From positions 32,001 to 96,000 of the IMG/VR virus record IMGVR_UViG_3300031688_000003: DNA of 64,000 nt. The stretch is one strand, 5' to 3'. Origin of the DNA: a virus. Below the pieces are notes generated by a model. It was not told the DNA's origin. It was given only the letters and a program-made list of their open reading frames with translations, and ran no database searches. Positions 13,434 through 51,700 of the stretch are shown piece by piece (position 1 is the first letter of the stretch; each line of letters opens with the position of its first letter). The position numbers and the translations under genes are program-made.

Positions 13434-14105
13434 ATGACAACTATAGGAGATATTGTATCAAGAGTTAGGAATCAGATTAAAGGTGAAGTTCAAGATGCTT
13501 TTATGACTGATAGATTTATATACAGTATGGTTATTAAATATGCTCAACTTCTAATGAGAAGACAAGACCATGCTAATAAACTAATGAAATTTAATAGTGT
13601 TTGGCAAACTCTACCTTTTCTTGAACTTATAGATGTTGATAAGGTTGAGGCAGAGTGTAGTGGTATTCAGAGTGGAATTACAATCAAAAGAACAAAAGAA
13701 AAACTACCTACATTCTTTGAGGGATATTGGGGACCACTCATTAGGACCGTATCATCTATTGATGGCTCTATTGAATGTCAACCAACACAACCTGGTACTT
13801 TTACATCTATGAGTAAAACTACTTCCTTTAAGTATAACAAAAGAAAATATTTCTGGTTCTTGAATGATTATCTATACTTACCTAATGTGTATTGGGATGC
13901 AATAAAACTTGAAGGAGTTTTTGAAAAAGATATATCTAGTTTTACATGTGATACTAGTGATGATTGTTTACCAAGATATAAACAGCAAATTAATATTCCT
14001 GAATTTCTTTATGCAGAAATTGAACAACAAGTTCTTACAGTTATGTTACAAAGAATAAATATTCCAGCTGACGATTCAGATAACAAGAAAAACCCCCATA
14101 GATAA
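13434..14105 (+). CDS. Tail ring / head-tail adaptor-type protein (223 aa)
   Basis: Helical N-terminus, beta-rich middle (YFWFLNDYLYL) and C-terminal IPEFL...QRINIPADDSDN. Its size and position upstream of the muzzle match crAss-like ring proteins. Confidence 0.6.
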   Translation: MTTIGDIVSRVRNQIKGEVQDAFMTDRFIYSMVIKYAQLLMRRQDHANKLMKFNSVWQTLPFLELIDVDKVEAECSGIQSGITIKRTKEKLPTFFEGYWGPLIRTVSSIDGSIECQPTQPGTFTSMSKTTSFKYNKRKYFWFLNDYLYLPNVYWDAIKLEGVFEKDISSFTCDTSDDCLPRYKQQINIPEFLYAEIEQQVLTVMLQRINIPADDSDNKKNPHR

Positions 14106-15022
14106 TGAGTTTATCACATAAATATAGAACATTTGATCAACTTCTTGAAGATGTATCAGTAGACTTTTCTACATATGCATTAGAAGGAATGATAGAACCT
14201 CAACAATTAATTAAAGTTGCACAACGTGTTAACTATGATCTAGGTTTAAAGATACATCAAAGTAGAGAAACTATAATTGATGCTGAACATAATAAAGCAC
14301 AACTTCCTTCTGATTTTACTACACTTAACTATGCATTTGTTTGTAGTGATTATAGAGTTGTAAACTCTCAACCATCAGGTACACACACTGATACTACACA
14401 ACCAAAATGGGTTCCAGATCCTGGACAACCAAACCAATGTGAAAATCCAGCAGATTGTAAAGGTGTATGTGTAATTAAAACATGTCCTAAAGATGATGGT
14501 AGAGGAAGTACTACATATGGTGGTGGATATGTTGTATTGCAGAGATTAAATCCTGAAACATATAGAGAGTTTTCATCCTTCTTTCCATTACGTATTACAA
14601 ATACAAGTAATGTAAGTTGTGAGTGTCCCAATTTAAATACACAATCTCCTAATGTAGCTGAAATACAAGATGGATATTTATTAACTACATTTACAACAGG
14701 TAAAATATATATAAGTTATCAAGGATCACTAGAAAATAATGATGGTGACTTATTAGTTCTTGATCATCCTTATTGTAATGAGTATTATGAATATGCCCTT
14801 AAAGAGAGAATATTAGAAAATATGTTATTTGCTGGAGAGAATGTTGCACAGCAATTAGGATTGATTCAGGGTAAATTAAAAGCATCAAGGAATAACGCAT
14901 TGAGTTTTGTTAACACACCAGACTTTGAAGAAATGAGAAAACTATGGACTGTAAATAGAAGAGCACAAATGCACAACTATTATGATATGTTTAGAAGTGA
15001 TGCCCCAAACCCTAGATCATAA
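14105..15022 (+). CDS. Tail tubular/ring protein (P22 gp4-like position in crAss-like phages), 305 aa, with a Cys-rich insert
   Basis: Translationally coupled to the upstream gene (TAATG) and immediately precedes the muzzle. It contains DGYLLTTFTTGKIYISYQG...LLVLDHP and an internal C-x-rich loop. Confidence 0.6.
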   Translation: MSLSHKYRTFDQLLEDVSVDFSTYALEGMIEPQQLIKVAQRVNYDLGLKIHQSRETIIDAEHNKAQLPSDFTTLNYAFVCSDYRVVNSQPSGTHTDTTQPKWVPDPGQPNQCENPADCKGVCVIKTCPKDDGRGSTTYGGGYVVLQRLNPETYREFSSFFPLRITNTSNVSCECPNLNTQSPNVAEIQDGYLLTTFTTGKIYISYQGSLENNDGDLLVLDHPYCNEYYEYALKERILENMLFAGENVAQQLGLIQGKLKASRNNALSFVNTPDFEEMRKLWTVNRRAQMHNYYDMFRSDAPNPRS

Positions 15023-15033
15023 CTAATTGAAAA

Positions 15034-18000
15034 ATGGCTAAAAAACAAACTCCAAACCCATCATTACCACAACAGACTTCATCAACAGAATCTAATCTGT
15101 TTATGAAAGGAATGATAAAGGACACCTTCCCTTCTATATCTGGAAAAGAAGTATGGGAACATGCTATAAATGTTATTAATAATTCAATTGATGGTGACAC
15201 TGGAGTTATAGGAAATGAACCAGCAAATTTTGAATGTGCAGAAATTCCATATACTATAATAGGGTCAATACATATTTATGGTGATCATTGGGCTATTTTT
15301 TCTACAGATGACTTTTCCTCTGAGATAGGTACATTTGATGATAGTAAATGTGAATATACAAGATTAATAAATGATCAATGTTTAAACTTCAACAGGGAAC
15401 ATTTAATAATAGGAGCTGCTAAAGAAAACTTTGAATGCAAGTATCAAATATATTGGGATGATTCAGTAAATCCATCTAGAACTTTAACACTAGAAGATCC
15501 TCCATATTTAAGAATTGAAGTATCTGGACCAAGTTTAAATGGTGCTCCTTGTTCTATATATGAAAACATACAACCACTTACACTAGATTGTGAAAGAATA
15601 AGACTAGCCCCTTTAATTGATACACCATGTTTAGATCTTCAAAAAGCTCCAGAAGGTGGTTCATTAAGAAATGGTATGTATCAAGCTTTTATTGCTTATA
15701 CTATTAATGAACAAGTATATGGAGACTTTATTGGTATTTCAAATCAACAGTCTTTATTTGAACATGATGATAGTGCAGGCTCTTTAATACTAACTTTATC
15801 ACACCTAGATAAAAACTTTGATAATTATAAACTTGTAATTTTAGGTAATAATCAAGAAGAATTTAAATTTTCTGAAGTTGGTGAGTATAGTACAGAACAA
15901 ACAACTATTAAACTAGATTATCTTGATCAAAAATTAAAGTCTGTTCCTACTGAGTATATGAATAAATTAACACCTGCATTAGAAAAGTCAAAAGGTATGT
16001 TTGTTGTCAATGACTATTTAGTTAGAACACAACCTACAAATCAATTTGATTTTAATTATCAACCTCTTGCAAATAGAATAGCTTGTAACTGGACATCTGT
16101 AGAATATCCAGCAGATTATTATTATAATGGAGGTAATAAACCAACATTCCTAAGAGACGAAAGATATGCATTCTTTATAAGATTCATATACAATACGGGT
16201 GAACGCTCATCATCATACCACATACCAGGAAGAGCTGCTACATACTATAGTGGAAGTGGTGTGTCTATGTTAGAAACTGATGTTATACCTGGAGATCCTA
16301 ATGCATTAGATCCTACTGATCAAATATTTAAGGTGCATAATACAGCATTTGTTTCACAATTAAATGTAAATACAGTACAACCTGATGGTGGAATTCTCAG
16401 GACTAGAGGTGAAATGGGCTATTGGGAATCAACAGAATTATATCCGCAAGATGCAGTTAGGTGGGGGGATCTGTGTGGTATGCCAATTAGACACCATAAG
16501 ATGCCTGATGAAAACACAGCTAATAATGGTACAACTGACAGAGCAACTCCAGGTGGAACTGGTATATATAATATTGCTGTAGAATTTACAGGTATACCAT
16601 GGCCAAGAGATAATGCAGGTAATCTAATACCTAACATTGTTGGTTATGAATTTTTAGTAGGATCAAGAGAAGGACATAAGTCTATTTTAGGAAAAGGTAT
16701 TCTTAAAAACATGGAACAATATATACCTTCTGATCCATCAGCAAGTGACGGATCTACATCTTTCTTTATACCTAATTATCCATATAATGATTTAACATCT
16801 GATCCATATATAAAAGGTCCTGGTGGTGGAGGTAGTGTAGGTTATGATAGTTGGTCAGGACTTGGTTATGAAGATTGGCTTCAAGGATGTGATAATCCAA
16901 CAGGTCCCTATAATAGATATTCAAATAGTGTATTTACATTTCATTCTCCAGATTTAATGTTTAATAGACCTTTCTTAAATGCATATGAATTAAAGTCATA
17001 TGGTGTTATATCAGGAACTCAAACAGGAAGATTTAAACCTTCAGAAAAACATCCAGGAGAAAAACTATTAAGAAACTCAACAGCTGTACTTGCAGCCTTC
17101 ATAGGTGTAGGATATGCTATATATGCCATGAGAGGTTCTACAGACCAAAAGATGACTACAGGACGTGTTCTGGATATGGGTTATAGAGAAGAAGGAGAAA
17201 TTACAAAACGTAGTGGAAATAATGGTACTTTTAGTGGAGGTGGTGCTTGGACAAATTTGGCTGGTTCATCTTATAATACAGGAACTTGGACTGGAGCAGG
17301 TGGTGGTAAAGGTACATTTAATGCATCAGCACCTAATAATGATAGGTGGCAATGGACTAGTGCTAATCAAATATCTGCAGCAAATAGAGCAAATTCACCT
17401 GGTACAGGTACTTATGATACTGCAGCCAATGGTTTGTTTCTTGGTTTAGGAGGAATTACTGGTGGAGCTGCATCAAATAAAGCAGGTGCTGTAACATGGC
17501 AAGCTGCACAAGCTACTAACTGGCAAGGTCAAGCTGGATCAATAGGACCTGGTCAAGAGATAGTTCAAAAAGGTACAAAGTTTAGTAATAAACCTTTTTG
17601 GATGGGTTTAATCAGTGGTGCACAAGAATTTATGAATTTTGTATCAACTGGTGGTCAAGAAATTATTGATTTAATTTATAATTTAACAAGCTTCAAACAA
17701 TATGTTTATAAATATAATAGTCATGGTTGGTACAGAAACATGTCAGCAAATCCAAATGGATCAATATTTAGACACTCCGTAAATAAATCAAGGTATTTAA
17801 ATGGTGCTATTTCTCAACTCACCCCAAGCATTAGAATTAATAATTTAAATAGACCTTTAACTGTAGCAGTTGAACTTGAAACTAATGGTAATGTAGATGT
17901 AAATGGACTACCCACTTCTAGTTTACCTTTACCTACGGGAGATAATTCTAAATATACTATAGGTACTGCACCAGGACAATGTGATTGGACTAACCCAGGA

Positions 18001-21000
18001 GGGGCAACTAGCTCAGGGATTGCAGCTCATTATTGTGCAATGAAGTATAATATAGATAATCAATATGGTCAACTAGAAGATATAAAACAAATACCTATTA
18101 GAGGATGCGTTGAATTTTTTGAAGACCAAATATTACTAGATGCAAGTGGTAACCCAATTATAAATAACTTAATAAGATTTAATTCTAAACCATTATTTGG
18201 TGGTGACTGCTATGTAAATAGATATACAGAGAAAGCTATTATGCCATTCTTCTGGGACTATTTAGCTGAAAATGAAAAAGATGGATTTGTATGGGATTAT
18301 AGATTATATCCTAATGTACCGTTTCCAACATATTGGATGAATACTGAAAAGTATAGACTTGATGAATTAACAAAACAGTTAGGTGGTGTTAATTTCGCTT
18401 TTGCAATAGCTTCAGGTTTTAATGGTGCCTTCCCTAATGATTATTATTACATGGATAGAGATCCAGCATCATGTAGTGGAGGTGGTTTATTTAGTAGCTT
18501 TAATGATGCAACAAATAGTAATCCAGGTTCATTATTTACTATACATGATGCATACATGTATCTTCACTGTAATGGAATTAATGATTTCTTTGTTGAGTCA
18601 GAATTAAATTTAGCTCAAAGAGATTGGGGGGAAGATATTGAAAAAAGACATTATGATAGTTTAACCTTTTCTGCATTGACAGATCTATTTCATGTAGATG
18701 GAATAAAGAAGGGTAATTATTATAAGTATGATAAGTCATTAAGTATTGAACAAAACTATAGTAGGACATTATCATGGGGGTTCATCCAGCCTAGATCATA
18801 TGATCCTACAGTAGCTGAAAAATGTTATATAACATGGAATAAAAGACTTGTGTATTCATTACAAGCTAAGAAAGAGGCTAAGAAGGATTTCTGGAGAGTC
18901 TTCCTTCCATTAAATTATAAAGAATTTAAGGACTCAGTTAATACTATTAAACCAATTAGCAAGACTGGTGCCATTGTATTATTTCCAAAACTTTCTCCAC
19001 AAATATTTACAGGTAATGATGAACTAACTACAGATGCTGGAACTAAAGTTGTTCTTGGTGATGGAGGATTATTTGCTGAAAGAAACTGGAGGGATATAGT
19101 AAACTCAGATATATCTCATGAATATGGATCATCTGAAAGTTCAAGAGCAGTGTTAAATACACCAATGGGATTATTTTTCATATCTCAAGAACAAGGAAAG
19201 ATATTTCAAACAGAAGGTAATTCACTAATCAATATTACTAATACAGGAATGAAGTGGTGGTTTAATAAATACTTACCATCACAACTATTAGCAACGTTCC
19301 CTGATGCTGAAGCATGTCCACAGATGATTGATAATCCAGTAGTATCTGCTGGTTGTCAAACTGTATATGATACAAACAATGATATTGTTTATTTTTCAAA
19401 AAGAGATTTTGCAGTAACTAATGCATTTGCAAATCAGTCAAACAACTGTATAGAGTATGTTCCATGTGAAGGGTTTTATCTAAATGAAACAATATGTAAC
19501 GGTGCATCACAAATAGTAACATGTCCAGATGGATATACTTATAATTCTGTTTCAGAAATGTGCGAGTTGATTACTTATGATTTACCTTTTGGACCACCAG
19601 CACCTGCATGTAAATTAGATATTGTTCTTTCTATTGATGCTTCATACTCAGTACCTTTACAATCTAATGTTAATAGCATGAGGTTAATTGTTCAAGGTAT
19701 TTTAGATGTGTTTGATAATGCTATGTCATTAGGTGATACACAAATAGGTATTATGGCTTGGGGAACTAGAGCATATGATGAAGGATCATTTAATGCTACT
19801 GCAATTGCATGTAATGGATTAAGAGCACCTGTAGCATTAACTTTTAACCCAAACTTATTAAATCAAACTACAGGTTTCATGAGTGAGTATACTTGTGCTT
19901 CTGGTACTTCAGCTTGTTGTCCAGGTGTACCTTGTGGTGGTAATGATTGTAATGTTACTGGGGGTACAGGATATGGAGATGCAGTATGGTCAGGTACAAA
20001 CTGGTTATTTAATCCTACACCAGGACCAGGTGGTACAGGTGCAAGACCTAATGTACCTAAAAAATTAATAATATTAAATGATGGTTGGGATGCAACATCA
20101 ACTGGTTGGGGTGGTACTAATCCAGATTCTACTGGAGCAGATAGAGCACTTACAAGACCTAATTATATAAACCTAGGTCAAACTTCTTCATTTGTAGCAA
20201 CACCAACAACACCTCCTATGGTAGCAACAGCTCCTGATACAGGTGTTGTAGGTAACATAAGTGCTGCACAACCTGATAACTTAGTTCAGTGGATACAAAC
20301 TAATATTCATGCAAATGCACAATATCAAGATCCTACTAATTCAAACTTTCTAGGTCAGTTAGAAATAATCCCTGGATGGTTAAAAAATAACAATACTCCA
20401 ACTGCAGCTGAAGAAGCTTATGCACAAAGTATTGCTGGATATGATGCTATAACAGGAGATCCTAATCCATATATGGCTGGTGACTTTCAAGCAGCTAATG
20501 TACAAGGTATTATAAATGACTTAGTTGAAAAAATATGTCCAGGTATTTTACCAAATTGTCCATCTGGTTGTACACCAGTTATACAAGGAGGTGTACCAAT
20601 GTGTGAATGTATAGATGAAGTTCCTGCTACATATGAAGATGTATTAACTTATATACCTTACCAATTAGAGAATCCTACATACTTCCAAGATGTTTCATGG
20701 ACAGTTAGTTATGATCCTAAAGCAAAAGCATGGATCTCATTTCATGATTGGCATCCTGAATTAGCATTCAATAGTATCAATCATTTCATGACATCTAAAA
20801 CAACAACAACTGAAATCCCACAATGTCCTCCTGGATATTCATTTAATAGTACTTTAGATGAATGTTGTATCACAGTAGCAGGATCTGATCCAGCATTTGT
20901 TGAAGTAAAATATATTCCATCAGATACAACTGTAGTAGATTCAGTCCAAACTGCTTTTTCAGTAGATACAGATATTGCATTAGTAATGGATGTATCTGGA

Positions 21001-22599
21001 TCAACTGCTCTACCTGGATGTATAATACCTTTCCCTACTAATTGTACATTTGGTGTACTTAGTGCACAAGTAGATTTTTGTACAGCATTTGTAAATGTTA
21101 TGTCTCCTGGTATGGCATCTGGAACTAACAATGTAAGAATTGGATTTGGAGTATGGGATAATGCAAATAGTGCTCAGGTAACAGGTTTAACAAGTAATGA
21201 TTCTACTCTAATAGATCCTATAGCAGGTTCAATAAGCACCTATGATGAAACGTCTGCTTCATATACAGCAGGAGGTACTAATTATGAAACAGCTGTATTA
21301 AGAGCAAGAGCAATGTTATCTGGATCAACAGCAACAAAAAAAGTTGTAATAATAATTACAGATACACAAAATAATACATGTGCTGCGTCCCCTCCAAATA
21401 ATATTTCTGCTGATTTATGGACTTGGAATGCAGCAGGTGGTGGTGATGTTGATACAATTGCTGTATTTGCTGATACTGTTGCTCCTGCAAATAATGGATG
21501 GTGGACTAATTTAAATTGTTTAGTTCAACTTGGTACTGCTGCACAAAGTATTGGTAATGATGCATTTGCAGTTGATTCTTCAAATTATGGAGATGTTGCA
21601 GTTAGTGTTATGAATTCACTTATTAGTTGTGATTGTCCAGTAAATACAGTTCCAGATATACCATCTATTCTTTGTAGTCCTGATCCTGGTGACCCATTAC
21701 CACAATGTGTATCATGTGAATGTCCAGCTGGATATACGCAAGTACCTGTTAATCAAGTTTGTAATTCATTAAATCCACCAACATGTAAGAAGGTAGATTG
21801 TAATTGTCCACCTATACCTGTATTAGATCCTTCATTAGCTACTACTTGGTTTGAGGCTGGAACACAATGTGATGATTTATTTTTAGTTGATACACCTGGT
21901 TATGTAAATCCAAATCCACTTATATGTAATTGGGAATATAAACAATGTGTACCTGCAAATTATACAGTTGGTGGTATGTGGAAACACAATGTAAGAAATG
22001 ATCTGTTTGTAAACTATTATGGAGAAGATTTCCCTTGGGAAGTTACACTAATAGAAAACACTGGTCAAGTTGTCAATACTCTAAGAAGTATAGAGTACCA
22101 ACAAGAATCATATGTATATAAGAATTTTAACTTACCACGTCCTCAGCAGCTTATAGGTACAGATAGATTCCATGATTTAGATTGGAACTTTGATGAAACA
22201 ATAATATATAATTCAGAACAGGTATCAGGATTATTAACTCTTGATCTTACTCCTAAGAATAATATTGTTTTACTTAATCAGTATCCTATAATTAATAATC
22301 CAACTGATATACAAATCCTATATTCTAAAGAAGAACAGAAATATAGATTTAATCAGTTCTGGGATATTACAGATGATAGAGGTGAGTTCACTGGAGTTGA
22401 AAGACCTATATGGATAACAACATTAAATGGGTATATTAAAAACTTAAATCAAGCAAATCTTAATTATATTAAAGCACCTTTGCAGCGTAAGAAGTTTAGA
22501 CATTACTATAATATGATTGTATTAAGAAAGAACGTATCAGGAGACAGAAAGATGTTACTTAAATTAAATAATACTAAAATGAATATATCATTTAGATAA
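15034..22599 (+). CDS. Muzzle / tail stabilisation protein (P22 gp10-like, crAss type) with two vWA insertions (2521 aa)
   Basis: crAss-type segments GMIKD, IYWDDSVNPSRTL, FLRDERYAFFIRFIYNTG.RS..YHIPGR, WESTELYP, CGMPIRHHKMP, FGGDCYVNRYT, SWTVSYDP...WISFHDW and RKKFRHYY. MIDAS DxSxS motifs lie at 19636 and 20989. Confidence 0.8.
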   Translation: MAKKQTPNPSLPQQTSSTESNLFMKGMIKDTFPSISGKEVWEHAINVINNSIDGDTGVIGNEPANFECAEIPYTIIGSIHIYGDHWAIFSTDDFSSEIGTFDDSKCEYTRLINDQCLNFNREHLIIGAAKENFECKYQIYWDDSVNPSRTLTLEDPPYLRIEVSGPSLNGAPCSIYENIQPLTLDCERIRLAPLIDTPCLDLQKAPEGGSLRNGMYQAFIAYTINEQVYGDFIGISNQQSLFEHDDSAGSLILTLSHLDKNFDNYKLVILGNNQEEFKFSEVGEYSTEQTTIKLDYLDQKLKSVPTEYMNKLTPALEKSKGMFVVNDYLVRTQPTNQFDFNYQPLANRIACNWTSVEYPADYYYNGGNKPTFLRDERYAFFIRFIYNTGERSSSYHIPGRAATYYSGSGVSMLETDVIPGDPNALDPTDQIFKVHNTAFVSQLNVNTVQPDGGILRTRGEMGYWESTELYPQDAVRWGDLCGMPIRHHKMPDENTANNGTTDRATPGGTGIYNIAVEFTGIPWPRDNAGNLIPNIVGYEFLVGSREGHKSILGKGILKNMEQYIPSDPSASDGSTSFFIPNYPYNDLTSDPYIKGPGGGGSVGYDSWSGLGYEDWLQGCDNPTGPYNRYSNSVFTFHSPDLMFNRPFLNAYELKSYGVISGTQTGRFKPSEKHPGEKLLRNSTAVLAAFIGVGYAIYAMRGSTDQKMTTGRVLDMGYREEGEITKRSGNNGTFSGGGAWTNLAGSSYNTGTWTGAGGGKGTFNASAPNNDRWQWTSANQISAANRANSPGTGTYDTAANGLFLGLGGITGGAASNKAGAVTWQAAQATNWQGQAGSIGPGQEIVQKGTKFSNKPFWMGLISGAQEFMNFVSTGGQEIIDLIYNLTSFKQYVYKYNSHGWYRNMSANPNGSIFRHSVNKSRYLNGAISQLTPSIRINNLNRPLTVAVELETNGNVDVNGLPTSSLPLPTGDNSKYTIGTAPGQCDWTNPGGATSSGIAAHYCAMKYNIDNQYGQLEDIKQIPIRGCVEFFEDQILLDASGNPIINNLIRFNSKPLFGGDCYVNRYTEKAIMPFFWDYLAENEKDGFVWDYRLYPNVPFPTYWMNTEKYRLDELTKQLGGVNFAFAIASGFNGAFPNDYYYMDRDPASCSGGGLFSSFNDATNSNPGSLFTIHDAYMYLHCNGINDFFVESELNLAQRDWGEDIEKRHYDSLTFSALTDLFHVDGIKKGNYYKYDKSLSIEQNYSRTLSWGFIQPRSYDPTVAEKCYITWNKRLVYSLQAKKEAKKDFWRVFLPLNYKEFKDSVNTIKPISKTGAIVLFPKLSPQIFTGNDELTTDAGTKVVLGDGGLFAERNWRDIVNSDISHEYGSSESSRAVLNTPMGLFFISQEQGKIFQTEGNSLINITNTGMKWWFNKYLPSQLLATFPDAEACPQMIDNPVVSAGCQTVYDTNNDIVYFSKRDFAVTNAFANQSNNCIEYVPCEGFYLNETICNGASQIVTCPDGYTYNSVSEMCELITYDLPFGPPAPACKLDIVLSIDASYSVPLQSNVNSMRLIVQGILDVFDNAMSLGDTQIGIMAWGTRAYDEGSFNATAIACNGLRAPVALTFNPNLLNQTTGFMSEYTCASGTSACCPGVPCGGNDCNVTGGTGYGDAVWSGTNWLFNPTPGPGGTGARPNVPKKLIILNDGWDATSTGWGGTNPDSTGADRALTRPNYINLGQTSSFVATPTTPPMVATAPDTGVVGNISAAQPDNLVQWIQTNIHANAQYQDPTNSNFLGQLEIIPGWLKNNNTPTAAEEAYAQSIAGYDAITGDPNPYMAGDFQAANVQGIINDLVEKICPGILPNCPSGCTPVIQGGVPMCECIDEVPATYEDVLTYIPYQLENPTYFQDVSWTVSYDPKAKAWISFHDWHPELAFNSINHFMTSKTTTTEIPQCPPGYSFNSTLDECCITVAGSDPAFVEVKYIPSDTTVVDSVQTAFSVDTDIALVMDVSGSTALPGCIIPFPTNCTFGVLSAQVDFCTAFVNVMSPGMASGTNNVRIGFGVWDNANSAQVTGLTSNDSTLIDPIAGSISTYDETSASYTAGGTNYETAVLRARAMLSGSTATKKVVIIITDTQNNTCAASPPNNISADLWTWNAAGGGDVDTIAVFADTVAPANNGWWTNLNCLVQLGTAAQSIGNDAFAVDSSNYGDVAVSVMNSLISCDCPVNTVPDIPSILCSPDPGDPLPQCVSCECPAGYTQVPVNQVCNSLNPPTCKKVDCNCPPIPVLDPSLATTWFEAGTQCDDLFLVDTPGYVNPNPLICNWEYKQCVPANYTVGGMWKHNVRNDLFVNYYGEDFPWEVTLIENTGQVVNTLRSIEYQQESYVYKNFNLPRPQQLIGTDRFHDLDWNFDETIIYNSEQVSGLLTLDLTPKNNIVLLNQYPIINNPTDIQILYSKEEQKYRFNQFWDITDDRGEFTGVERPIWITTLNGYIKNLNQANLNYIKAPLQRKKFRHYYNMIVLRKNVSGDRKMLLKLNNTKMNISFR

Positions 22600-25500
22600 T
22601 GGCATATAGTATAGACGGATATAAAAGAGATAGTAAGGATGTAAAGAAACCTTCCAACTTGATACCTTCAGGTAACATTACTATGAAGGGTGTAGACTTT
22701 CCTGTGATGGGTACAGACAATCTTGGTAATCAACAACTTATGCAACCTGGTCTTGATTATCAATTTCCTGGTAGTGAAGTCTTTGAACAACCTATGCAAA
22801 ATCTAACGCAAGATAAACCTAAGAATCAAGTAAAGAAAAGGAAAGTAGATAGAGATAATAAATTAATCACAAACTGGACTTCAGAAATGGGTGATGTATC
22901 TTCACACAAAATGACTAGTATGTCATTTACTGATGATGATGGTAATCCAATATATGTTGCTATTCCAATGTTGTTTCCTACTATTGAAGGACAAGAAACT
23001 CCTGATCCAGCATCATGGACTCAATTTGCAGAAGGTGATGAGATGTCTGCTTTTGAAATGGCTATGCAAAGAGGTGAAGTGTATTACTTTAATTCTGAAC
23101 AAGAATCACATAAGTTTGCTAAAGGTTCTTGGAAAACTCCAAACTTAAAGAAAAGAGATGGTGGTTTAATAAAGCATCAAGACATAGGGTCTAACAATCA
23201 TATTATAAATAATAGAGACTTAAGTGACCCTAATAGGAAGTTTATGAAGCCTACAATAAACTTAAGTAATTATGATGAGCTAGAAGAAACATTAGGAGAT
23301 ACGTCTTGGGTGGACATAATGTCAAAAATGTCTGAGGAAGAGTTTAACAATTTTGTTGCACCTTATAGTAAAAGAACAGATAGTTTAAACAATCTTAAAA
23401 GGTTTACAGGTGATGAGAGATGGTGGGCTGGTAATCTTGCTAATGTTATTTCTGATGAAGAATATGCAAAGGCAAATGAAAATCGTAAATGGACAAGAGA
23501 CAACCATAGAAAAGGGAACCTTCCTAATTATAGTGAAGTGGCACCACTTGGAAAATCTACAGAAGATGTATTTTATGATGCTGAAAAAGCTTACTATAAT
23601 ACACCAGTACACACTAAAGAAGAACTTAATGCTGACTTTGATACTGCTTATCCTTATACATTTAATTCAGTTGCTGGAACGGATCCTTTAAATAAGATAC
23701 CATGGAAGAATGAGATGAAGGATGATCCAGAAAAGTGGGAGGGTTCGTGGTCTGATTATATAAGAAGTACAGATATACAACCTGACTATTATGAAATAGG
23801 GGACATAACCCTTGCTGAAGAAAGTAATCCATTTCATTTTGTATATGACGGTGGAGATCAAGATGGAGAGACAGTTAATACAGCAGTTCCAGATAAAGGG
23901 ATAAAAGATATACAAGATGTACGTAGTCATGATGAATATATGAAATGGTATGATCATCATAAAAAGAGCGGTGTTCTTAATAATAAATCTAAAAAAGATA
24001 TGGATTATTGGGAAGCTTTAACTGATAAAGATAATAATGTATGGACATCTAACTTTAAATATACAGATGCATCACCAAGATATAAGGAACTAGATTTCCT
24101 TGAAAACCCTAATATGAATATATCAGATGGGGAAAGAGGGAGATTATCTGATAGATCTGAACAGTCGTTATCAAGATTTGAAACATTAACGGGTAGAGAT
24201 AGAAAGATGTATAATGATAACCATTTAAATGAAATGGAATATTTTAATTCAATTGGTATATTTGAAACTCCTTTAGATAAACCTATTGCCTACTATCCTA
24301 AAGAAGAAAGGATGGAGTTAATGAAAGTATTAAATGATTATGAAAAGAAACAAAATTCTGAAAATACAGCTTGGACAATAGATTATAAAAATTCTGAGTT
24401 TTATGGTAAAGAAAGAACATATAAGTATGGTGGTTCACTTCCAAAAGCTCAATTAAAGCAAGTTAAGAATGCATATGCTTTAACTAAGAGTTTAATTAAA
24501 GGTAAGCAGTTAGGTAAGGTTTTAAATAAATCATTAAAACTTAATGAATTTATTCCTAAAGCATCAAAGGCTCCAATCATACCAAAAAATAAAATAGCTT
24601 ATGTAACTCCTATAAATACAGATGTAAACATAAACATAGGTAATGATATAATATCTAATAACAAAACTGTAAATGCTGATAATAAATTTAGTTTACAATC
24701 AGATGTCTTTAAGAACAAAATACCATTAACAAGAGTATTAAGTTCTAAAGGTTTAAGATTTACGGATGGTAAATTATTTAGTTCAACAGAACCACATACA
24801 CATTATAAATCAGACAGCAGAGGTGAGGAATTTCCTCTTCGTTTAAAATCAACAAATAGAAATACCACACATTGGTCTTATGGTCATATAGGTAATCCTG
24901 GACATGGGGGTGGAAGTTGGTCAAAGAAGTCTACAGCTATCATTAATGATTATGAAAATTTGTCAAAATCTGGACTTGCCCTAGATCTTGATCCAACTGA
25001 TACATGGTTCTATTCTAAAGGTAATTTTGAAATACCTGCTAATTCATTAATCTTGACTAGAGATAAGACGTTATATAAGAAAATAAAAAAAGAAACAAAT
25101 ATTACAAATATAAAACTATTTGAAAATACTAATAATGAAGATTTTGAAAGTATTGTAAACTCATATTCTACAAGAGGAGGAAAAGGAGCATATACTAGAC
25201 CAACGGATGATATGATAAATCCTAAAGATCAGTTTTTTAATGCAGGAGAAGGTGAAATGATAATGAGAGACTATATGATAAAAAACTATAGTAAAGGAGA
25301 TGATGTATCTTTAACACAGACTGCGGATCACTATAAACCTCATCAGTGGCAAGGACATGATTTTGATTGGGTACACCCCTTTACTGGTAAAAAATCAGGT
25401 ATTACAACAATGCATCCAGATTTTGATCATTCTTATATGGATCTTGGAGATCCTTTTGGAGGAGGTCAGAGTAAGGCACACTCTGGTTCTCCATTATCTA

Positions 25501-28500
25501 CTATAGAAAGAATGGAATATAATTGGGGAGATAATATGACAACTAATCATGGATTATACAGTAGTAACAACAGATGGGGCAATGGTGATAGATCAGGAAG
25601 CTTAGATATATTAGCAAAATTACCAAAAACCATACAAGTAAATGAAATGGAGAAGGTAATGAAAACCTATAAAAATCAACGTGAAGGTCTTAGACTTCAA
25701 CAAGAACTAGCAGAATTAAACGGGTTTAAATCATATAAAGAATTCAAGAACTCAATATCAAAACAAGAATGGTTAGATTTTAAGAGAGATGGTGGCTCAC
25801 TAAACAAAGCACAATGGTGGAATCCTAAGAATGCATATGCTTTAGCTAATACTATATCTAAATCATTTAAACCAGCTAAATCACTTCTTCCTAAACCTAG
25901 TTTTAAAAATATAAACTACCAAAAATTATTACCTTTTACTGAATCAGGTTCTACTCTTGTTCCTCAAACCCATATGAGTAGTGGGAAGGAAGGAACTAGT
26001 ATGGATCTATCAGAGACATTAAATTCTATTTATGCTGATAACAAACCTATGTGGTTTGGTCCTACTGCAACAAGTAATAGATATAGAATGACAGATGATA
26101 ATAATAAATTTATTCCAACAATTCCTGGACAAGGTGGACTTTTTCAAGTAGGTTCTGGAAGACTTGGTAATACAGGTAAACCAGGTTTTGATGAAATACC
26201 ATTTACAGAAGCAACAATGCCATTTGGTGGTCTGGCAAATGATGGTTACCACCTTAATCTAGAAACTGGATTGCCTAATTACAATGATCCACTAATGGAT
26301 CACAAACTTTTAACAAAAAATGCTTTTCAAAATAAGATTGATGGTGTTTTTAATCCTAATACTAAGTTTAAAATATTTAAGAGTGACCTCTCCAAAGGTA
26401 ATCATGCAATGCACCAGAAATGGTCAGACAAAGAACTTGCTAAAATTAAAGCAGATGGGTATGATGCTATTCAACTTGTAGATCAAAATGGTAATCAGAT
26501 AGAAAATATATTACTTAATAAAGAAAAGTTTAAGATAAATAAGATCAATGATATGGATGTACACATTGACAATCCTGAATTCAAATATGGTGGATCACTA
26601 CCTAAGGCTCAATGGTACAATCTAAAGAATGCATATAATATCGGTAAGGGTTTAGTAAATACAATAAAGAGTCCTTTTATTAATGATTTAGTGCAAGGTA
26701 GTAATAAACTCTATAGGGGTATAGGACCAGCTGGATATAATAGTGCAGTAAATACTGGTAAGATACTATCAAATGTAAACCCAACTGCAGTAAATGAAGG
26801 TGCTTTTAATTTAACAAAGAACTTTGGAAATAAAACTTTTTTCACTCCTAATGTTGAAACAGCAAGTAAATATGGTGATGGTTATATAGCTGAAATAAAT
26901 AATGATGTTAATGATTTTAGTAATAGATATAATTCAGACTGGAGTCAGTTTACAACTGACCCTGTTTTCTTAAGTCAATCTAACATATATAAAATGAATA
27001 TGTTAGGAAATTATAAAAGAATACTTTCTCAAAATACAGTAGGAGATCATAGTAAAATAAACTTTTTAGATAATGTTAAACTTAGGACAAATTATACATC
27101 TAGTACAGGTTTAGATTATTATGGTCATAGAAATGTTAAACATAATATAAAAGGAGGATGGCCTACACAGTTAGAGGTTGAAAAACTAAAAAAAGATTCA
27201 GGTTTAACACTAACACAAGATAACTTAAGAAGTTATGTAGAAAAGATTGGTAAAGTTGGCGGTGGTAAATATCCTAAAACAACTTTATATAGATATGGTG
27301 ATATGGCTACAAATGCAGCTGGTAATAAAGACATGGGTTACTATTCAGCAGATCCACTTGATCCACTTAGATACAGTGAAAGAGCAGATAGAACTTTTAA
27401 TGGAAGTGTTTTTAAAATTGATGTTGAAAATGAATTACTACCAGAATTTTATAAAGGAATAGGATTTGGTAACCAAGGTAAAGAACCAGGATTTCAATCA
27501 GGAACATTATTTAAAGAATTTGAAGTTCCAGAAGATTTTTTAGGTAAATTTGGAAATCAACAAACTTTCAAAACTTTATCTGATTATAAAAAATGGCTTA
27601 ATACAGTTAAGCAATCTGGAGGATCATTAACTAAACATCAAGTTCCTAAATTAATTAAAGGTGCATTAGACTTAGGTAAGAAGGTGAAGAATATTATTTC
27701 TCCTAAAAATGTTAACTCAATTATAGATTGGAGTAAAGTCAGTCCTGCAATATTAGCTAATAAAAACTTATTAAGTGAATATGCTGATATAGAAATGGCA
27801 ACTAAAGCAAATGCAACATGGATGAAGAATGATGATGGTACTTCTTTCTGGGGTACACCTCAACAGTTTATTCAAGTAAATAGTGAGGCCTTTAAAAACT
27901 CTTATCCAGAAGGTTATAAAAGAGTATTCAGAGGTGAGTCAGGTACTTTGAAATTAACAGATCCTCTTTATTCAGGAGCTGCAGATATAGAATCAGGTAA
28001 TAAAGGTATATTTACAGCAAATGAAGGTTTAGCTAAACTATATACAAACGATTATAGATTAGGGTCAAATAGTAGTATTCTTCAATTAGCAATACCTAGT
28101 GTTAGTGATGGTAGCAAATACTTAAATATAAACGGTCTAGGTAATGATTGGACAGATCTTAGTTCTATAGGTACTACAAAAAAGACTCTTGAACTAAATA
28201 TAAAGAATTTAGAAAATAACATAAAGAAGGATGCAGAAGGATTTCAATGGGCATCTGGCAGTGGTAGTTTAGAAAGTTATGATGTAAATAAACACTTACA
28301 AAGTTATAAAGATTTTTACAATAACTATGATGAGATAGTTGCTAATCCTATCTATAAGAAATTACTTGAGTTTAAAGAAGCTGCTTGGGAAAATGACAAA
28401 ATTCTTAATGGGGGAAATTTAGCAGGACGACAAAGTTTTGGAACTGGAGATGTAGGTGACTTTATGGAAAAATCAGGTTTAAATAATATAAGATTAAACT

Positions 28501-42783: not shown

Positions 42784-45700
42784 ATGGCTGAAATAGATGA
42801 AACCACACAAGGAAATACTAACCTTCCTCAAGATCAAAATATATCTAATCAAATGGTACAGGAAGAGTCTATTCCTGAGAGTAATGTACCTCAAGTAAGT
42901 GATATAAATTTTGAAGATATTGCTGATATGATAGGTTCACCTACTGGTAACTTAGCTAGCCTTCAGCTTAGAGATCCTGTATTTGAGGGGATGTTAAGAC
43001 AAGCTGCAATACCTATTAACTCAGCACCACCTATGACTGGTTTACATTCTTCATCTAATCCTTTACCTGGTAAAGCAACACAACATTATAATCCATATGA
43101 AGATTCCACGCCACCTGACATGACCACTATAGAGGGTAAGAAAAAGATGATGATGCAAGGAATGCATCAAGCTATGGTTAATCCAAGACAACAAAAAGCT
43201 CCAGGTTATAGATCAGATTTAGAATATGGAATAAGAGAAACAAATTTTGATAGATATTATGCACATAATAAATATGATGAATTAGGATTTCATCCTTTTA
43301 GAAATAATGAACAAATATATAATGCTAATGCCACACTCTGGGATGATCATGCTAGAGCATGGAAACAAACAAGCCGTACTTATTGGACTGGTTTCACTTC
43401 TAGTTATGATGCTATAGGAGATTGGTTATCTGGTGATGGATACCTTTCTCCAGATAGAGATGGTGCAGAAGCTTTTGTTGATGCTATGCGTATTGGTAAC
43501 TCATCAAAAGAAGGAGTAGGAGGTGCAGCAATAAGGTTTGGTTTAAATTCAGGATATACATTTGGTATTATATCTAATATCATGGCAGAAGAAATAGTAC
43601 TTGCAGGTGTTACTGCACTTTCAGGAACAGGAGCTGCTCCAGTTGCAGCAGCAAGAACTGCTCAGAATGTTGGAAGACTAAAAACGGCATGGAATGCATT
43701 TGGGACAGCATTTAAAACAGGTGTTGGTCAGTCAACTAGAATATCAGCAGGTGCAAAACTTATGAAGGATATGAATAAGGTGGAAAATGCTAGACATTTT
43801 TTTACTGCTGTAGGTGAGGGTGCTTTAAACTTTGTTACTCCAGGAACAATGCAGGCTATCCGAACTCTTAACACTTCCAAAGGAGTTGTAAGAGGTGCTC
43901 AAAGTATTAAAAATGCAAATGCAGTATTTGGTGGATTTTATAGAGATATGAGACAAATCAATCTTGCAATAGCAGAAAGTAAGTTAGAATCAGGAATTGT
44001 TTATAATCAAATGATTGATGGTTTATATCATGATTATGTTGCACAATATGGTGATACTCCACCTTCAGAAAAGATAGATGAGATACGTCAAAAAGCAACT
44101 GCAGCTTCTAGTGCTACTATGGGTTTCAATGCTCCTCTTATATATTTATCTAATAAAATTGTATTAGGTACATTATTTCAAGGAATGGGTGGTGGTCTTA
44201 GTAGACTAGCATCAAGATATGAAGGTAAAGGTGCAGCACGTCTTTTTAGAAATAGTACAGTTAAACCAGCTGCAGCAAAAGCTACTACTGATGTAGCTAA
44301 AAAAACAATGTATGATGGTGGTTCAACTTTTATAAAGAGACTTAAAAATTTAGGTGTTAAAGGTTCAGCTGGTTCTGTTGGTGCTTTTGCATTAAGATAC
44401 ACAGGTGCTAACTTTGCTGAAGGTATTCAAGAACTTTCACAAGAGGTTATTGCTAAAACAGCAGAAGATTATTACACTGGTTTATTTTTAGATCCAGCAT
44501 CTATACAAAATATGTTATTGGATGCATCCCTTAAGGATGCAATAAATGCACAAATAAGCCCTCAAGGGTTTGAGGTATTTATGTCTGGGTTCTTAATGGG
44601 TGGTTTAGTTCAACCTGTACAACAAGGTCTAATGGTTGGATTACCTTCACTGTACCAAATGGGTAAAGGTCATTATGGTACTAAACAAGATAAAGCAAAG
44701 TACCAACAATATAAAAAAACTAAAGAAGAATTTCTTTCTAAGTCTTTAGAAAACTTAAACCTTATTGCAGAAGATCCTTTAAAGTATTTTGATCCTACAA
44801 AATTAAATGCAGTAGAACAGAAGCAAATAAATGAAAGATTATTACAATCTTCATACTCATCTGATATGTTATCATTCATGGATGATAAAGATCAGTCTAT
44901 GTTCTCTCAACTTGATTACTTGTATAAGACTGGTAAATCTTCAGAATTTAAGTATCTATTAGAGGACTATACTAAATTATCTGATGCAGAACTCTTAGAA
45001 GGTTTTCCTGAATATACAAAAGAGATTAAGTCAGGTAAGTTAAGAGGAAAATTAGAAAAAGCTATCAGTAAGATTGATGAGTTTAAAAAAGGTTGGGATA
45101 TGGTAAAGATGAGTTATCCAAACCCATATGATCCATCTGAATTTATGGAGGGTTCTGCTGAATGGAATATAACAGCATTACAATCATTAGCATATGATCA
45201 TTCTACAAAACTATTAATGTATTCACAAGATACTTTTAAAAGAGCACTTGAAAGATCAAATAGTATATTTGAAAGGTTAAGTGGTGAATCTGTAATAAGT
45301 AAGTTTAATACTAATGATATATCTGCATTATTAGATCTTAAGAGTCTTAAAACTGAAATGGAACTTCTTAAGTCTGAAATTGAACTTGGAGCAACAACAT
45401 CAGAACAGAAAGAACTTATAGAGACAAAAACAAAAAGGTTAGAGTTACTACAAAATTACTTTGATATAATCACTAACCCAGAAAACTTTACTAAAAGAAG
45501 TGAAGATAATATTGCTATATCTGCAAAAACAGATATGGAAGCAACAGAAGAGACTGGAGATGACACTATGGAAATTGGTGGTCAAAGATATAAAGCAGCT
45601 AGAAAAGTAACTTCTGAAGTTGGAACTTTTGATAGAAGAAAAATTAATAAGTTAACTCCAGCATTTAATGCATATATCAATTTCTTAGCAGAACAGAAAG

Positions 45701-48700
45701 GAGAATTCATTCATGGTAATGATATGACTGATGTGTTAAAAGATATAGTAGATTATAAATTTCTAAAAGGAAGATCACAAACATACTTCAGAGCTATTGA
45801 AAATTTGAATAATCCAGAAGCTATGGGTGATACAGCTCAGAGAATTGCTGAAAGATTAAAGATTATATTTGATAGAAATAAAGAGGATGTTGAAGTTGCA
45901 GTTAAAAAGTATGTAAATGATTTAGAGAAAAATGAATTAATAAATCAATTTGCATCTCAGCTTATTTACCCTGATGCAGATCAAGTTATTTTATTTTTCC
46001 AAGAAGGTATTATACCAACTATATTTCAATCTCCATCTGGACAAATTACAGCACAAGATAATACAGGTAAGTGGGAAGCTATACAAAACCTAATCAAAGC
46101 ATACCAAAATAGACCAGGAACAGAAACAACTGTTCAACCTGGAGATGCTGTTACTGAAGATGAAATAAATAATGAAGATGAGTTTGATAGACTAGCAAAT
46201 CAAGCTGAACAGAAAGTTACTGAAATATCAGAATCTACTAATGCTGTATTAGTTACAAAATGGAAATCATATGTTCAGTCTAGAGTTGGTACTTCTGGAA
46301 AAGTTTTATCATGGAATGATTGGCAGAATACTAAAGAAGCAAAAAATATAAAAGCTATTAGAGCAGAGTTAGATGTTGTTTATTTAAGTAACTTAACTTT
46401 AGATCAACAACAACAAAAATCTTTTGATAAATGGTTAATTGAAAATCAAAGAACACCTGAAGTATATAGAATACTTGACTCAAAGGGTGGGTCAATAAGT
46501 GATTATATTATTACTGATTCTGACACAGCACAAACTGATAAGTTAGATGCTGGAGATGTATTAACTGAAAGTCCTACAGGTATAAACATATTAAAGAAAC
46601 TAGTGTCTAGTCAATCAGGTGATGATGAATTTTTCTATGAAGTTGTAGATAATAATATGAATAATCTACATCAACAATATGTAAATGTTGATCCTAGTAT
46701 AATGGATACATATGCTACTATGGGTGAGGCTTTAAAAGCTCAAGATGCAATTATAAAGTTACTACCTAGTAATAGCACTTTCCCATTTCAAGGTAGAGAT
46801 TTTCATTATAAACAGATATTACAAGATAACAACAAAGAACTTTTTACAGTAATCACAACACCTTCATTATTTAATAAGGGTGGTAAATTATACTTAAGAC
46901 CTCTTGAATTTGCAAATGATCCTAAGAAAAGCTTTGAAGTAACTGATGTGGGTAATTATAGTCCATTAGATGCTACTAATTTTAAGGCATCATCAAAGCA
47001 GGATAACTTATTAAAACTTAGACAATCAGAACCTATTAGACTATATGCTAGAAGAGCAGATAATGAAACAGCTGAAGATGCTGAAGTAAGATTAACTGAT
47101 AGATTAAAAGAAATACCTCAAGAACAAGTTCGTGCTTTTACATTAAAGGTCTCTAGAAATGCTAAATGGGAAAGCTTTTTAAATGAAGAACCAACAAATA
47201 GAGGTAAGTTAGGTACTGAAGAGTTTAATAATCCAAGATTAAGAATTGGTTCAGAAGAATTAACTGTTGCTGTAATGCATGGACGTGAAATACTTGGATA
47301 CTTACAGGGACCTACTGGATCTATTATTTTAGATGCATATGATAATGTTATAAATCCTTTATCTTTAACTGAAGATCAAGCAGAAGAGTACTTTCAAATA
47401 TATAAAACATCTTCTACACAACTTAGAACTGCTGCAGAACAACTTCAAATAATAAAAAATAACTATGCAAGTAGTATTTTATTAAATAAAAAGCTAAGAG
47501 ATCTATTAGGAAGTGATCAAGAAGCAGATATTCCTATAGCAAAAATCAAAGGTTTAGATCTTAGAATATCTCCAGGTGAAATGTCATTTGCTGCTAAAGG
47601 TAAAGGAGTAACATTTTCTGAATTACATAGTAGTACAGTTGATGGAAAGAATATATGGGTAGTAGATAACCGTAGTGATGGTAATGGTGGTATAATTACA
47701 AATATTACTGATGATGAAGTTTATGAAAAGACTGATGCATTAGTAAGTGCAGCAACTGATCAGTCAGGATATAATCCTTTAAATACTAAAAGTAGATATG
47801 TTGCAGCAGTAAGACTTAACAATGGAACATTTACATTTGTAGAATTAAAAGCAGGTGAATTAACTAGTGATGAGAAAAGTCAGTTAACATTAGATATTCT
47901 AAATGAACAAGATAAAACATTAGCTGAAAACATTGATAAAGAAAATGATGAAGTAAAAGATGCTACTGTTAATTTTGCATTCAATGAAAAACTTAAAAAT
48001 GATTTCTATGTATTTGGAAAAACTGGAGAGTTTATTGATATAGAACTTACAGCTAGAGGTGATGTACAAGTCATATATAGAAATACAAAGAAAGCTGGAA
48101 AAGATGGTAAAGCATTAAGAGTTACATATACTGTAAATGAGAATGAACTTAAAGGTGTTAAAGAATCTGCAAATCCTTTTAAAGAATTCTTAACTGTAAT
48201 CAATAACAAAATTAAATTTAAAGATTCATCTATTGAAGTAAAGAGTGGTCTTAAATTAAGCTCAGATAACTTTAGATCATCTATACCTAAAGAAGCTACA
48301 ATACAAGATCTTGCATCTGTAGTTACTAACTTTAATAAAGGACTAAGAGAAAACATTAGAATTGAAGCAGTCATTGCTGATTCAGCTCAGATTAATAATA
48401 TTTTAAATAATGTAGAGCTCCCATCTTTTGTAAAGAATAGTGTTAAAGAACAAATAGAAAATACAGATCAAGTACTACTTGAAGCTGAAAGTGAAGCACC
48501 TGAGTTGACTCCAGAGTATATGAGACGTTTATTTGCAGAAGGATATGTAAATATAGACACTAACATTATAAAAGCAATAGCTAGAAAGCTAGCAACTAAT
48601 ATAGAATTATCAGCAGCTGAACGTACAATTTATGCTAATAATAAAAATACACAAGTACGTGATGATATAAACTTATTAAAGCTTACATATAGATCAGGTG

Positions 48701-51700
48701 TAATTGAAGAGGGTGGTTCCACTGATATTGATATTGAAGGTAATCCAGTTGTAGTTGAAAAATCTCCATCAAGAAAAATAGCTGATCAAATTAAAGATCT
48801 TGAAGAAGAATCTGGTAAGTTAGAAGATAAAATTTGGGAAGATACATATTATAGCATTGCTTCTGATGAACAAATTAAAGCAGATCCTAGTGTGATAAAA
48901 GAAGGTAACATTGCTGCTAATGATGCTATTGAGAATAGTGAAGAATTAAAAAGTATTGAAGCTAAGATTGCTGAGTTAAAAAAGAACTTAGCTCCAAAGG
49001 TTATTAATGAAAGACTTGGTCAAGAACATATTGAACAAATTGATGAATTTATTACTTGGTCTCAACAGAACTTACCTGACTTTATTCAAATACAAGACAT
49101 AAGAGATTTATCAGCTAGACTAAAAGAGAATGGTAAGACAGCTGGTATGTTTACATTAGAACTAAACACATTAGGAAATAATATAGAAGGTAATATATAT
49201 GTAGGTGCACAAACACCATTTAAATACCACGAAGCATTTCACGGGGTGTTTAGAATGTTACTTAGTGAAGAAGAGATTAGAAAATATATTTCACTTGCTA
49301 AAACAGAGAAGCTTGCTGCACTTAGGAAAGAAGGTAAAAAACTATCACAAGCTCTTAATGAACTTAGAACATCACATAGTATCTATAATAAACTATCTAA
49401 AACAGAATTAGAACATAGACTATATGAAGAATACTTAGCAGATGCATTTGACGCATTTAAAATGAAGCCTAAGGGAACTAAAACTTCTTCTGAAATTAAG
49501 AGTCTGTTTACAAGAATTATAGAATGGATTAAAGCTGTATTTAATAGATTTAGTAAGAATGAATTAACAACTTTATTTGAGAATATTGATTCAGCAAAAT
49601 ACTCTATATCTTCAGTTCAATCTAATAGGTTTACAACTGCTACAGAAACTGGCATAACCTCAGCTGCACCAAAAGTAATTGCTATAGATAGTTTTGAGAA
49701 TACATATACAGATCCATTCACAGGACAAGAGATTGTAAGTTTATCTAATATATATATGCCTGCTAATGATCAAAGACAATTAATTGCTACTGTTTCAGCA
49801 CTATACAGAAGCTATGTAGAGAGAGGTGATTTATTAACTATGTCTAAAAGAGATGTGTTAAATACAGCTATTGCTGATTACACTAAACTTCTTAATCCAA
49901 GAAGAACTTACTACACTAGTGAATCAAATGGTATATCATTTAGAAGTATAAGAAAGAAACTTAAAACATACTATAAAGCTTTAAAAACAAATAGAGACGT
50001 AATTGCTGAGAACGTTACTAATTATTTAGCAATCTTTGATGCCAAATATCAAATTGAACAAGATGCATTTGAAGAGCATATACATAATGAAGATAACAAC
50101 ATAAGGAAGGTTGACCAGTATGGTAAAGATGCTAGTCAAATAGGAGGAGCTATGTCATTATCAACTGAATTAAGAACATTTATTGCAACTACAGTATTAT
50201 CAGAACAAGATTTATTTGGAAATACAGAAACACTAGAGGGAATTCCTATTGTAACTACAGTTGATTTTAACTTTGCATATAGTGGTCTTCTAAAAGCTTT
50301 ATCTGATAAGACAACAGACTTGGAATTATTAAGAGCACTTGCTTTATTTAGTTCATCTAATAAGAATACTGCAGCTGTAGCTAATAATATATTTAATGAA
50401 ATAGGTATAATAGATCCAATATCTTTATTAGATGCAGAACAATTACCTGAAATATCAAATCCAAATTTCTTACAAAAAGTTATAAAAGGATTTAATATGT
50501 TTAGAGTAGACTATATGTTTGCTCATAAAGATGATGATACTGGTATTGTGTTCTTATATGCAGCAAATAAGAAAGATGATGCACATTCACAAATAGATCA
50601 TTGGTCTCAGCACTTTGATGAAGTTTATCCTACATTATTAACTGATGATGGAAAGAAAAAAGCTGTATCATTACTTAACTTGTTTTACTCTAAACTTCAG
50701 AATCCAAAAGAAAGAAGTAGGAATGCATTAGACATAGAATCAAAGGATATAGCTAAAAAGATATATGAACAAATTGGTATACAACTAAACGCTGAAACTA
50801 TTAAGTATAGTATATTATCTACCAAAGTAGTTAGAAAGAACTGGGAAGAAGCAATTGTTTCTTTAGGTTTGTCTGCTGGAGCTGATCCAATTGTATCAGA
50901 AGATATTGCTGAGTTAAGAAATTCAATTTCAAGAGGGGAAAACATATTCTTAGATAATCAAACTAACATACCTGAGAATGAAGCTGAAGAACAAAGCACA
51001 CCTGAGGTGGTTGAACAAAGTACAGGTATTAGTAGTAGATTAAAAAAGATGGCTAATACAAATGCTAACTTTGATGAGACAGTAGGTGCTACAGTATTTA
51101 GAGATCCAAAAGGTAATTTAATATATGCTCATCAGATGCCTACATTCCATTTAGTGAAGATTGCTGAAATGAGTGAAGCTAATTGGGCAAGTACTAAATT
51201 AGAAGAGAATAAATTCTTTAATAGAAATTACTTATTAAACAATGATAAGTTCTTGGCTCATGCAAAATCTGGACAATTAAAGGTATCAAGATTTATAGGA
51301 AGTAAGGAAGGTAGACTAACTGAGAATGAACAAGGAACTCTAATAGAGAATAGAGGTTTAAACACTAATCAAAAAGATGGTGTATCATTTGGAGAATCAA
51401 CAGGTGCAGAATTTATTGCTGATGTTCTTAACTCTTATGTATATAACTATAATAGAAATAGTCAATCTGTACCCTTAAACCCATATGATAAAAATGGTAA
51501 GGAGTTATTTTATATAACTGCTCCCGTAGATTTGAAAGTATTATCTGATGCTAGTACTTCAGACTTTGTTGATCTACCAATTGAAAAAATGATAGAGCAA
51601 GATGAATCAGGAGATATTAAACTTACTGACCATACTCTTGATGCATTGATCAATAACATTTTACAATATGAATATGACCGTGTTGCAGATGAATTAAATG

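Follow-up and report, generated by a model that had tools for sequence, protein, structure and literature searches.

Does one giant gene of a marine crAss-like phage encode a series of ADP-ribosyltransferase (ART) modules for delivery into the host, and how many such modules does it hold? We examined this in a window of 64,000 nucleotides (nt), positions 32,001 to 96,000 of the 119-kb IMG/VR virus record IMGVR_UViG_3300031688_000003; all coordinates are those of the window. The gene in question is the following.

22599 to 30488, plus strand: gene of P0001, a cargo-type polyvalent protein of 2629 amino acids (aa), directly after the ring genes and a structural gene of 2521 aa

A sequence-only reading of the window had counted four to five ART-like cassettes in P0001. 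Our analysis supports three ART-fold modules, not four to five, and bears out the broader claim that several modules of one multi-module, virion-type polyvalent protein have the ART fold: module D1 by its predicted structure, module E by profile homology and, with weaker evidence, module D2. We consider it probable that P0001 is a packaged and ejected cargo protein of the crassvirus type that strings together at least three ART-fold modules of unrelated families, which are listed here.

26667 to 27044, plus strand (aa ~1357-1482): module D1, predicted ART fold, ~70 copies among relatives
27033 to 27602, plus strand (aa 1479-1668; core aa 1554-1668, nt 27258-27602): module D2, probable ART-like fold
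27696 to 28613, plus strand (aa 1700-2005): module E, ART-PolyVal-like, >140 copies among relatives

The motifs on which the count of cassettes had been built all lie in frame where they had been placed, in a single open reading frame (ORF; 22599-30488, plus strand): LYRG at aa 1371-1374, VFRG at aa 1776-1779, LYRA at aa 2200-2203 and GYDAIQL...ENILLN at approximately aa 1288-1306, with R1565 at nt 27291, S1583 at nt 27345 and E1640/E1642 at nt 27516-27524. A two-part motif, defined as aliphatic-[YF]-R-[GAY] followed 10-60 residues on by aromatic-[ST], occurs four times in P0001, compared with a mean of 0.015 in the shuffled protein, and none of 2000 shuffles reached four copies. The motif pattern in P0001 is real and goes beyond chance.

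Predicted structures of modules D1 and D2

Cassette D (343 aa) was folded with AlphaFold from a fragment alignment of IMG/VR loci. The model had a mean predicted local distance difference test score (pLDDT) of 69; within D1, pLDDT was ~72-87 over most of the core and fell to ~52 in the strand 1-2 loop. We compared the model with 48,161 representative PDB chains in a VIA wide structural search, in which Foldseek was not used. The best 50 rows for D1 were all chains of the ART superfamily, all aligned to model residues 27-152, at Z 4.1-7.7. Among them were Tpt1 (Z 7.7, root-mean-square deviation 2.6 over 89 residues), TreX (Z 7.7), Scabin (Z 7.3), LT (Z 6.8, root-mean-square deviation 3.3 over 100 residues) and pertussis toxin (Z 6.8), together with KptA, TreTu, PltA, DarT, Arr, PARPs and diphtheria toxin. 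The single Z values are unremarkable; a match list that holds one superfamily only is remarkable. Because all of the best 50 structural matches are ART-superfamily chains, we assign D1 the split beta-sheet ART fold on the strength of its predicted model. A Foldseek search against the PDB also placed ARTs at the top, all of them weak matches (E 0.08-2 for D1), and the top matches of D1 among the viral models of BFVD agreed with an ART, with E at least 0.004 across the PDB and BFVD searches.

The family alignment of D1 conserves Y-R-G, then [YF]-[ST]-P and then I-A-E. Arg1373 lies in strand 1 and [YF]-[ST]-P (T1416) in strand 2, Glu1432 is near-invariant, and R1373 and [ST]1416 are conserved in a module that has no ExE. 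The structural alignment with LT begins at LT residue 4 and D1 model residue 40, which, if gapless, would put LT Arg7 on R1373 by a range-offset estimate.

D2 was folded alone with AlphaFold, because D1 had filled the first match list, and gave a model with a pLDDT of 67.5 and a predicted template modelling score of 0.70; like that of cassette D, it is of moderate confidence. Approximately 40 of the 50 best VIA wide rows belonged to the ART superfamily, as weak matches with a best Z of 4.4; in a second VIA search (pdb_via), all of the best 50 rows were ART chains aligned to the core (model residues ~76-190). The top Foldseek matches were pertussis toxin S1, ParT and Tpt1 at E 0.1-2 (best 0.11). 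Seven relatives of D2, plus 13 loci in the domain map described below, were found. In an alignment of 13 sequences from IMG/VR and marine metagenome loci, R1565, S1583 (as S-A-D) and E1640 are invariant, and LT Arg7 would fall on R1565, again as an estimate from range offset and not as a computed superposition.

Because these weak but coherent structural matches come with an invariant Arg/Ser/Glu set, D2 is probably an ART with an R-S-E site, as far as its model allows. The sequence-only reading had described a complete R-S-ExE triad at 27291. The Arg, the Ser and the first Glu of that triad stand; the second Glu (E1642) is E, D or R in relatives, and the alignment does not support an Arg-specific ExE signature.

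The D2 matches also bear on a different chemistry, in which some module or modules would be glycohydrolases or phosphorylases of nicotinamide adenine dinucleotide (NAD+) that remove or intercept defence signals derived from NAD+ instead of transferring ADP-ribose to a macromolecule. Phage counter-defence built on NAD+ and ADP-ribose is a known theme (PMC9503650), RES-type toxins (VPA0770, Xre-RES and MbcT) stand in the D2 list beside transferases, and a TNT NADase cluster is among the language-model neighbours of D2. The RES matches, however, lie within one Z unit of many transferases, the order R...S...E of D2 is that of transferases and not the R-E-S of RES domains, and no sequence relation to RES or TNT was found. 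We regard NAD+ consumption of this kind as quite improbable. The RES-domain reading of D2 itself was set aside on the residue order R-S-E and on Z values tied with those of transferases.

Profile homology of module E

ART-PolyVal (PF18760) comprises the Tox-ART-HYD2-related ARTs of polyvalent proteins described by Iyer et al. in 2017 (PMC5512222), with a published site of His in strand 1, Tyr in strand 2 and Asp (Asp/Glu) in strand 5. A relative of P0001, P0004, holds a compact paralogue of E with a sub-threshold ART-PolyVal match. The family of this paralogue has 78 sequences, and the seven that were tested all exceed the PF18760 gathering threshold, scoring 33-49 bits where the cut-off is 31.2 and covering profile positions 1-140. 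When the E family was aligned with the 78-sequence family by hhalign, the two matched at E 1.3e-70 (probability 100, 135 columns), and their C-terminal tails aligned at E 1e-16. Because this profile match is to a family that passes PF18760, E is, by profile comparison, homologous to ART-PolyVal.

In this alignment, YHGS of the 78-sequence family is paired with (V/Y)FRG of E, and GIYT with GIFT; R1778, G1779 and F1805 are invariant in 46 E-family sequences. The core of E is divided by an insertion of ~115-130 residues, probably helical, at approximately aa 1836-1950 (28104-28448). It breaks the alignment, and no residue of E could be matched to the strand-5 acid. The compact P0004 paralogue has no such insertion.

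D1 and the ART-PolyVal-like domain travel together. In 42 of 63 D1 copies among relatives, an ART-PolyVal-like domain follows within 40 residues (for example, L012:1501-2550), so that, as judged from sequence, the two ARTs form a conserved unit; D2 stands between D1 and E in this window. If both members of this unit are active, they would form an undescribed pair of ART families in the cargo proteins of crassviruses, acting by new chemistry or on new targets, for example nucleic acids, with D2 as a third ART of the R-S-E type. We think this unlikely; if true, a single ejected protein would bring in three NAD+-using enzymes that differ in mechanism.

Evidence against active ART modules

Several of our results weigh against reading P0001 as a carrier of ARTs. 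No cassette of P0001, searched singly, has a match in Pfam, NCBIfam, PHROGs or PDB sequences, and Foldseek returned nothing at E 0.001 or better for the D1 or D2 model. The structural matches of D2 are all at Z < 5. In E, Arg1778 replaces the family His and Phe1805 the family Tyr. The D1 family has Q, M, Y or W at the presumed position of the catalytic Glu in strand 5, which was placed by eye only, and the canonical catalytic Glu may thus be absent from D1. In addition, the portal-binding domain crAss_CARG1 (PF25725) has no match in P0001 itself in a Pfam search.

The whole of P0001 has no match in Pfam, PHROGs, NCBIfam or PDB sequences; PDB profile searches with the alignments of C (a candidate module considered below), D2 and E gave no match; and the PF18760, PF01375 and PF15633 models run on the phage's own genome gave no candidate. 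PF18760 does not match E or any other P0001 cassette even at E 10, and Pfam ART-PolyVal matched none of 46 E-family members. Single-sequence queries of IMG/VR found no close relative of P0001. A relation to T4 Alt, ModA and ModB, which the sequence-only reading had invoked, was not found, as Pfam ADPrib_exo_Tox has no match at E 10 and whole-protein tblastn has none in 50,697 phage records (INPHARED).

These results raise the possibility that the ART-fold modules are mostly pseudo-enzymes that have kept the fold and lost the chemistry, serving an ejectosome or cargo protein as filler with a structural or docking role or with the ability to unfold. The Arg and Phe of E, the lack of a conserved acidic residue at the presumed Glu position of D1 and the failure of curated ART models to score any cassette would all be expected of such filler, and the cargo proteins of PhicrAss001 have been proposed to build a trans-envelope channel (PMC10172136). 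Yet the substituted positions are themselves conserved (R1778, G1779 and F1805 in 46 sequences; R1373 and E1432 in D1; R, S and E in D2), and their invariance therefore argues for a conserved site rather than for decay. The strand-1 Arg also fits a normal R-S-E ART site, in which it is the usual NAD-binding residue. We consider it unlikely, with a minor chance of being correct, that the modules are mostly pseudo-enzymes.

Two further candidate modules

A count of four to five ARTs in P0001 would include two more cassettes.

25866 to 26573, plus strand (aa 1090-1325): module C, an unconfirmed ART candidate that ends GYDAIQL...ENILLN
29169 to 29798, plus strand (aa 2191-2400): module F2, an unconfirmed ART candidate with SLYRAV...LFTT and ~9 relatives

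Both carry the same motif order. Six homologues of C were found, and its invariant residues include H1125, W1152-F1153, G1287, D1289 and E1302. The GYDAI...E-N-I-L-L-N end of C aligns weakly by hhalign (E 1e-3, 59 columns) with the C-terminal half, around strands 4-5, of an HGS-type cassette that the relative P0003 carries. For F2, a Tox-ART-HYD1 cluster is found among its language-model neighbours, at a score of 0.88 that lies below the tool's reliability line and serves as a lead only. Against the higher count, neither the C nor the F2 profile gives a significant hhalign match to D1, D2, E or the ART-PolyVal-positive family; the relatives of C have no Pfam match in the C region, and F2 has none in five relatives and no free-standing homologue in the near-length range. 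We therefore doubt the count of four to five, while giving it some chance: D1, D2 and E have support beyond motifs, and C and F2 remain ART candidates on their motifs and weak leads.

The P0003 cassette (aa 222-456) carries FHGSP, GFYAT, GYDAILG and SEFIILN and resembles a classical His-Tyr-Glu ART, with no detection by Pfam. It aligns weakly to the ART-PolyVal-positive family (E 0.003) as well as to module C (E 0.001).

Modular architecture of P0001

The cassettes of P0001 are bounded by recurrent linkers.

GGS(L)xKAQ linkers, six, plus strand: aa 611, 1065, 1331, 1674, 2010 and 2402; nt starts 24429, 25791, 26589, 27618, 28626 and 29802
25791 to 25814, plus strand: GGSLNKAQ, one of the six linkers

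GGS(L)xKAQ junctions also occur in the next ORF (30568-35532), at 31105, 32116 and 33601. They may be cleavage sites or no more than flexible linkers.

The cassettes themselves are not detectable paralogues. In BLAST and hhalign comparisons between cassettes, only the linkers and a short helix after each were matched; the best pair, D1 against E, reached E 0.007 over 20 columns, which is not significant, and D1 and D2 gave no hhalign signal against the ART-PolyVal-positive family. Internal paralogy was rejected, with similarity confined to the linker stretches.

A domain map was obtained from an exhaustive HMMER search with aa 1331-2401, in which 570 relatives were found and mapped back onto P0001. 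The mapping resolves at least nine modules, including the following.

22599 to 22838, plus strand (aa 1-80): module N, found by jackhmmer in 65 of 158 pooled homologues, which are giant phage proteins of otherwise different architecture
aa 640-1060: module B, few relatives
aa 2030-2190: module F1, few relatives
29826 to 30368, plus strand (aa 2410-2590): module G, a highly conserved C-terminal module with 11 relatives, not an ART candidate

The N-terminal 80 residues could act as a signal for packaging or for docking at the tail. The last 225 residues (aa 2405-2629, 29811-30485), which include G, are 92% identical to P0004, compared with ~47% elsewhere, so that the C-terminal module appears from sequence to be strongly constrained. 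An SLT-like reading of G, suggested by eye from an AES...GLYGQ motif, was unconfirmed, with no match in Pfam and PDB searches.

Among relatives, the modules of P0001 recombine freely, alongside SLT, amidase, lysozyme, YkuD, LysM, SET and crAss_CARG1 domains. With 2629 aa, at least nine modules, a place in a block of ring and structural genes, and modules shuffled with unrelated domains in its homologues, P0001 has the design that Iyer et al. described for polyvalent proteins in 2017 (PMC5512222).

Genomic context and proposed mechanism

P0001 lies in a series of giant ORFs on one strand of the window, which has ~32% GC. Three genes upstream place it within a virion gene block.

13434 to 14105: small ORF with a match to the tail-ring family CrAss_Ring_2 (Pfam)
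14105 to 15022: small ORF with a match to the tail-ring family CrAss_Ring_1 (Pfam)
15034 to 22599: ORF of 2521 aa between the ring genes and the P0001 gene, with a match to a PHROG of virion structural proteins

In PhicrAss001, cargo proteins are encoded downstream of the ring and muzzle genes; they are present in virions and have been proposed to be ejected (PMC10172136). Homologues of P0001 carry crAss_CARG1 and ART-PolyVal (Pfam) together, and crAss_CARG1 is found, for example, in the relative P0163. From gene position and from homologues with this domain of crassvirus cargo protein 1, and from these only, we infer that P0001 is probably packaged in the virion and injected into the host.

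On this basis, and because polyvalent proteins and T4 Alt offer an analogy, we propose that P0001 would probably enter the host by ejection, before the DNA or together with it, and serve early in infection, carrying D1, D2 and E separated by flexible Gly-Gly linkers. The ART-fold modules would then use NAD+ to modify macromolecules of the host. D2, with its Arg/Ser/Glu set, would be the module most likely to be an active enzyme. D1 and E, with non-canonical sites, could be active with altered chemistry or could act as binding or regulatory modules.

Comparison with known systems

Of all protein-modifying domains in polyvalent proteins, ARTs are the most frequent, and they occur singly or in as many as 12 copies (PMC5512222). 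E shares with ART-PolyVal the N-terminal helical part, strands 1-3 and the C-terminal tail, and P0001 resembles the carriers of that family as a giant protein of a virion gene cluster, in which multiple ARTs per protein are known (PMC5512222). Unlike ART-PolyVal, E is missed by the Pfam model, has Arg/Phe for His/Tyr and contains the core-splitting insertion.

The R-S-E mono-ARTs (cholera toxin/LT, pertussis toxin S1, PltA and Scabin) rank among the best structural matches of both D1 (Z 6.3-7.3) and D2 (Z 2.9-4.4). Their strand-1 Arg would fall, by range offset, on R1373 and R1565, and both modules have an aromatic-Ser/Thr pair in strand 2. By contrast, there is no sequence similarity (Enterotoxin_a scores nothing), ExE is unconserved in D2 and unidentifiable in D1, and D1 and D2 are small phage modules rather than secreted AB toxins.

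T4 Alt is a particle-borne ART that is delivered with the DNA (PMC5512222). P0001, if packaged as we propose, would share with it the concept of a particle-carried ART; no homology between the two was found, and Alt is a head protein with a single ART, whereas P0001 is multi-module.

Crassvirus cargo protein 1 (PhicrAss001 gp45, PF25725) is alike in gene position, after ring and structural genes, and homologues of the ART-PolyVal-like module have crAss_CARG1 in the same polypeptide. P0001 differs from gp45 in lacking a crAss_CARG1 match and in its size (2629 aa), threefold that of the 90.8-kDa gp45. PMC10172136 reports no ART for gp45, and the term 'ADP-ribosyl' does not occur in it.

Tandem ARTs in virion polyvalent proteins have been known since 2017 (PMC5512222), and the general idea is not new. 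Particular to P0001 is that one protein combines three ART-fold families unrelated to each other, all missed by curated libraries. D1, with ~70 copies, and the Arg/Phe variant of the E type, with >140, went unseen by the libraries in a small sample of relatives. Surveys based on such libraries therefore undercount packaged ARTs, and Pfam and PHROGs overlook much of the ART content of these cargo proteins.

Few known phages are as abundant as crassviruses. For the question of what their ejected cargo proteins do in the host, the locus offers three separable ART-fold modules with named candidate catalytic residues.

Other genes in the window

Two further giant ORFs of the window are recorded here. 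The ORF at 648-7244 (2198 aa) has leucine-rich repeats and a fibronectin type III domain and is probably a tail fibre or receptor-binding protein. Neither half of the ORF at 42784-58167 (5127 aa) matches Pfam; its position makes this ORF a possible candidate for the fused virion RNA polymerase block known from crAss-like phages.

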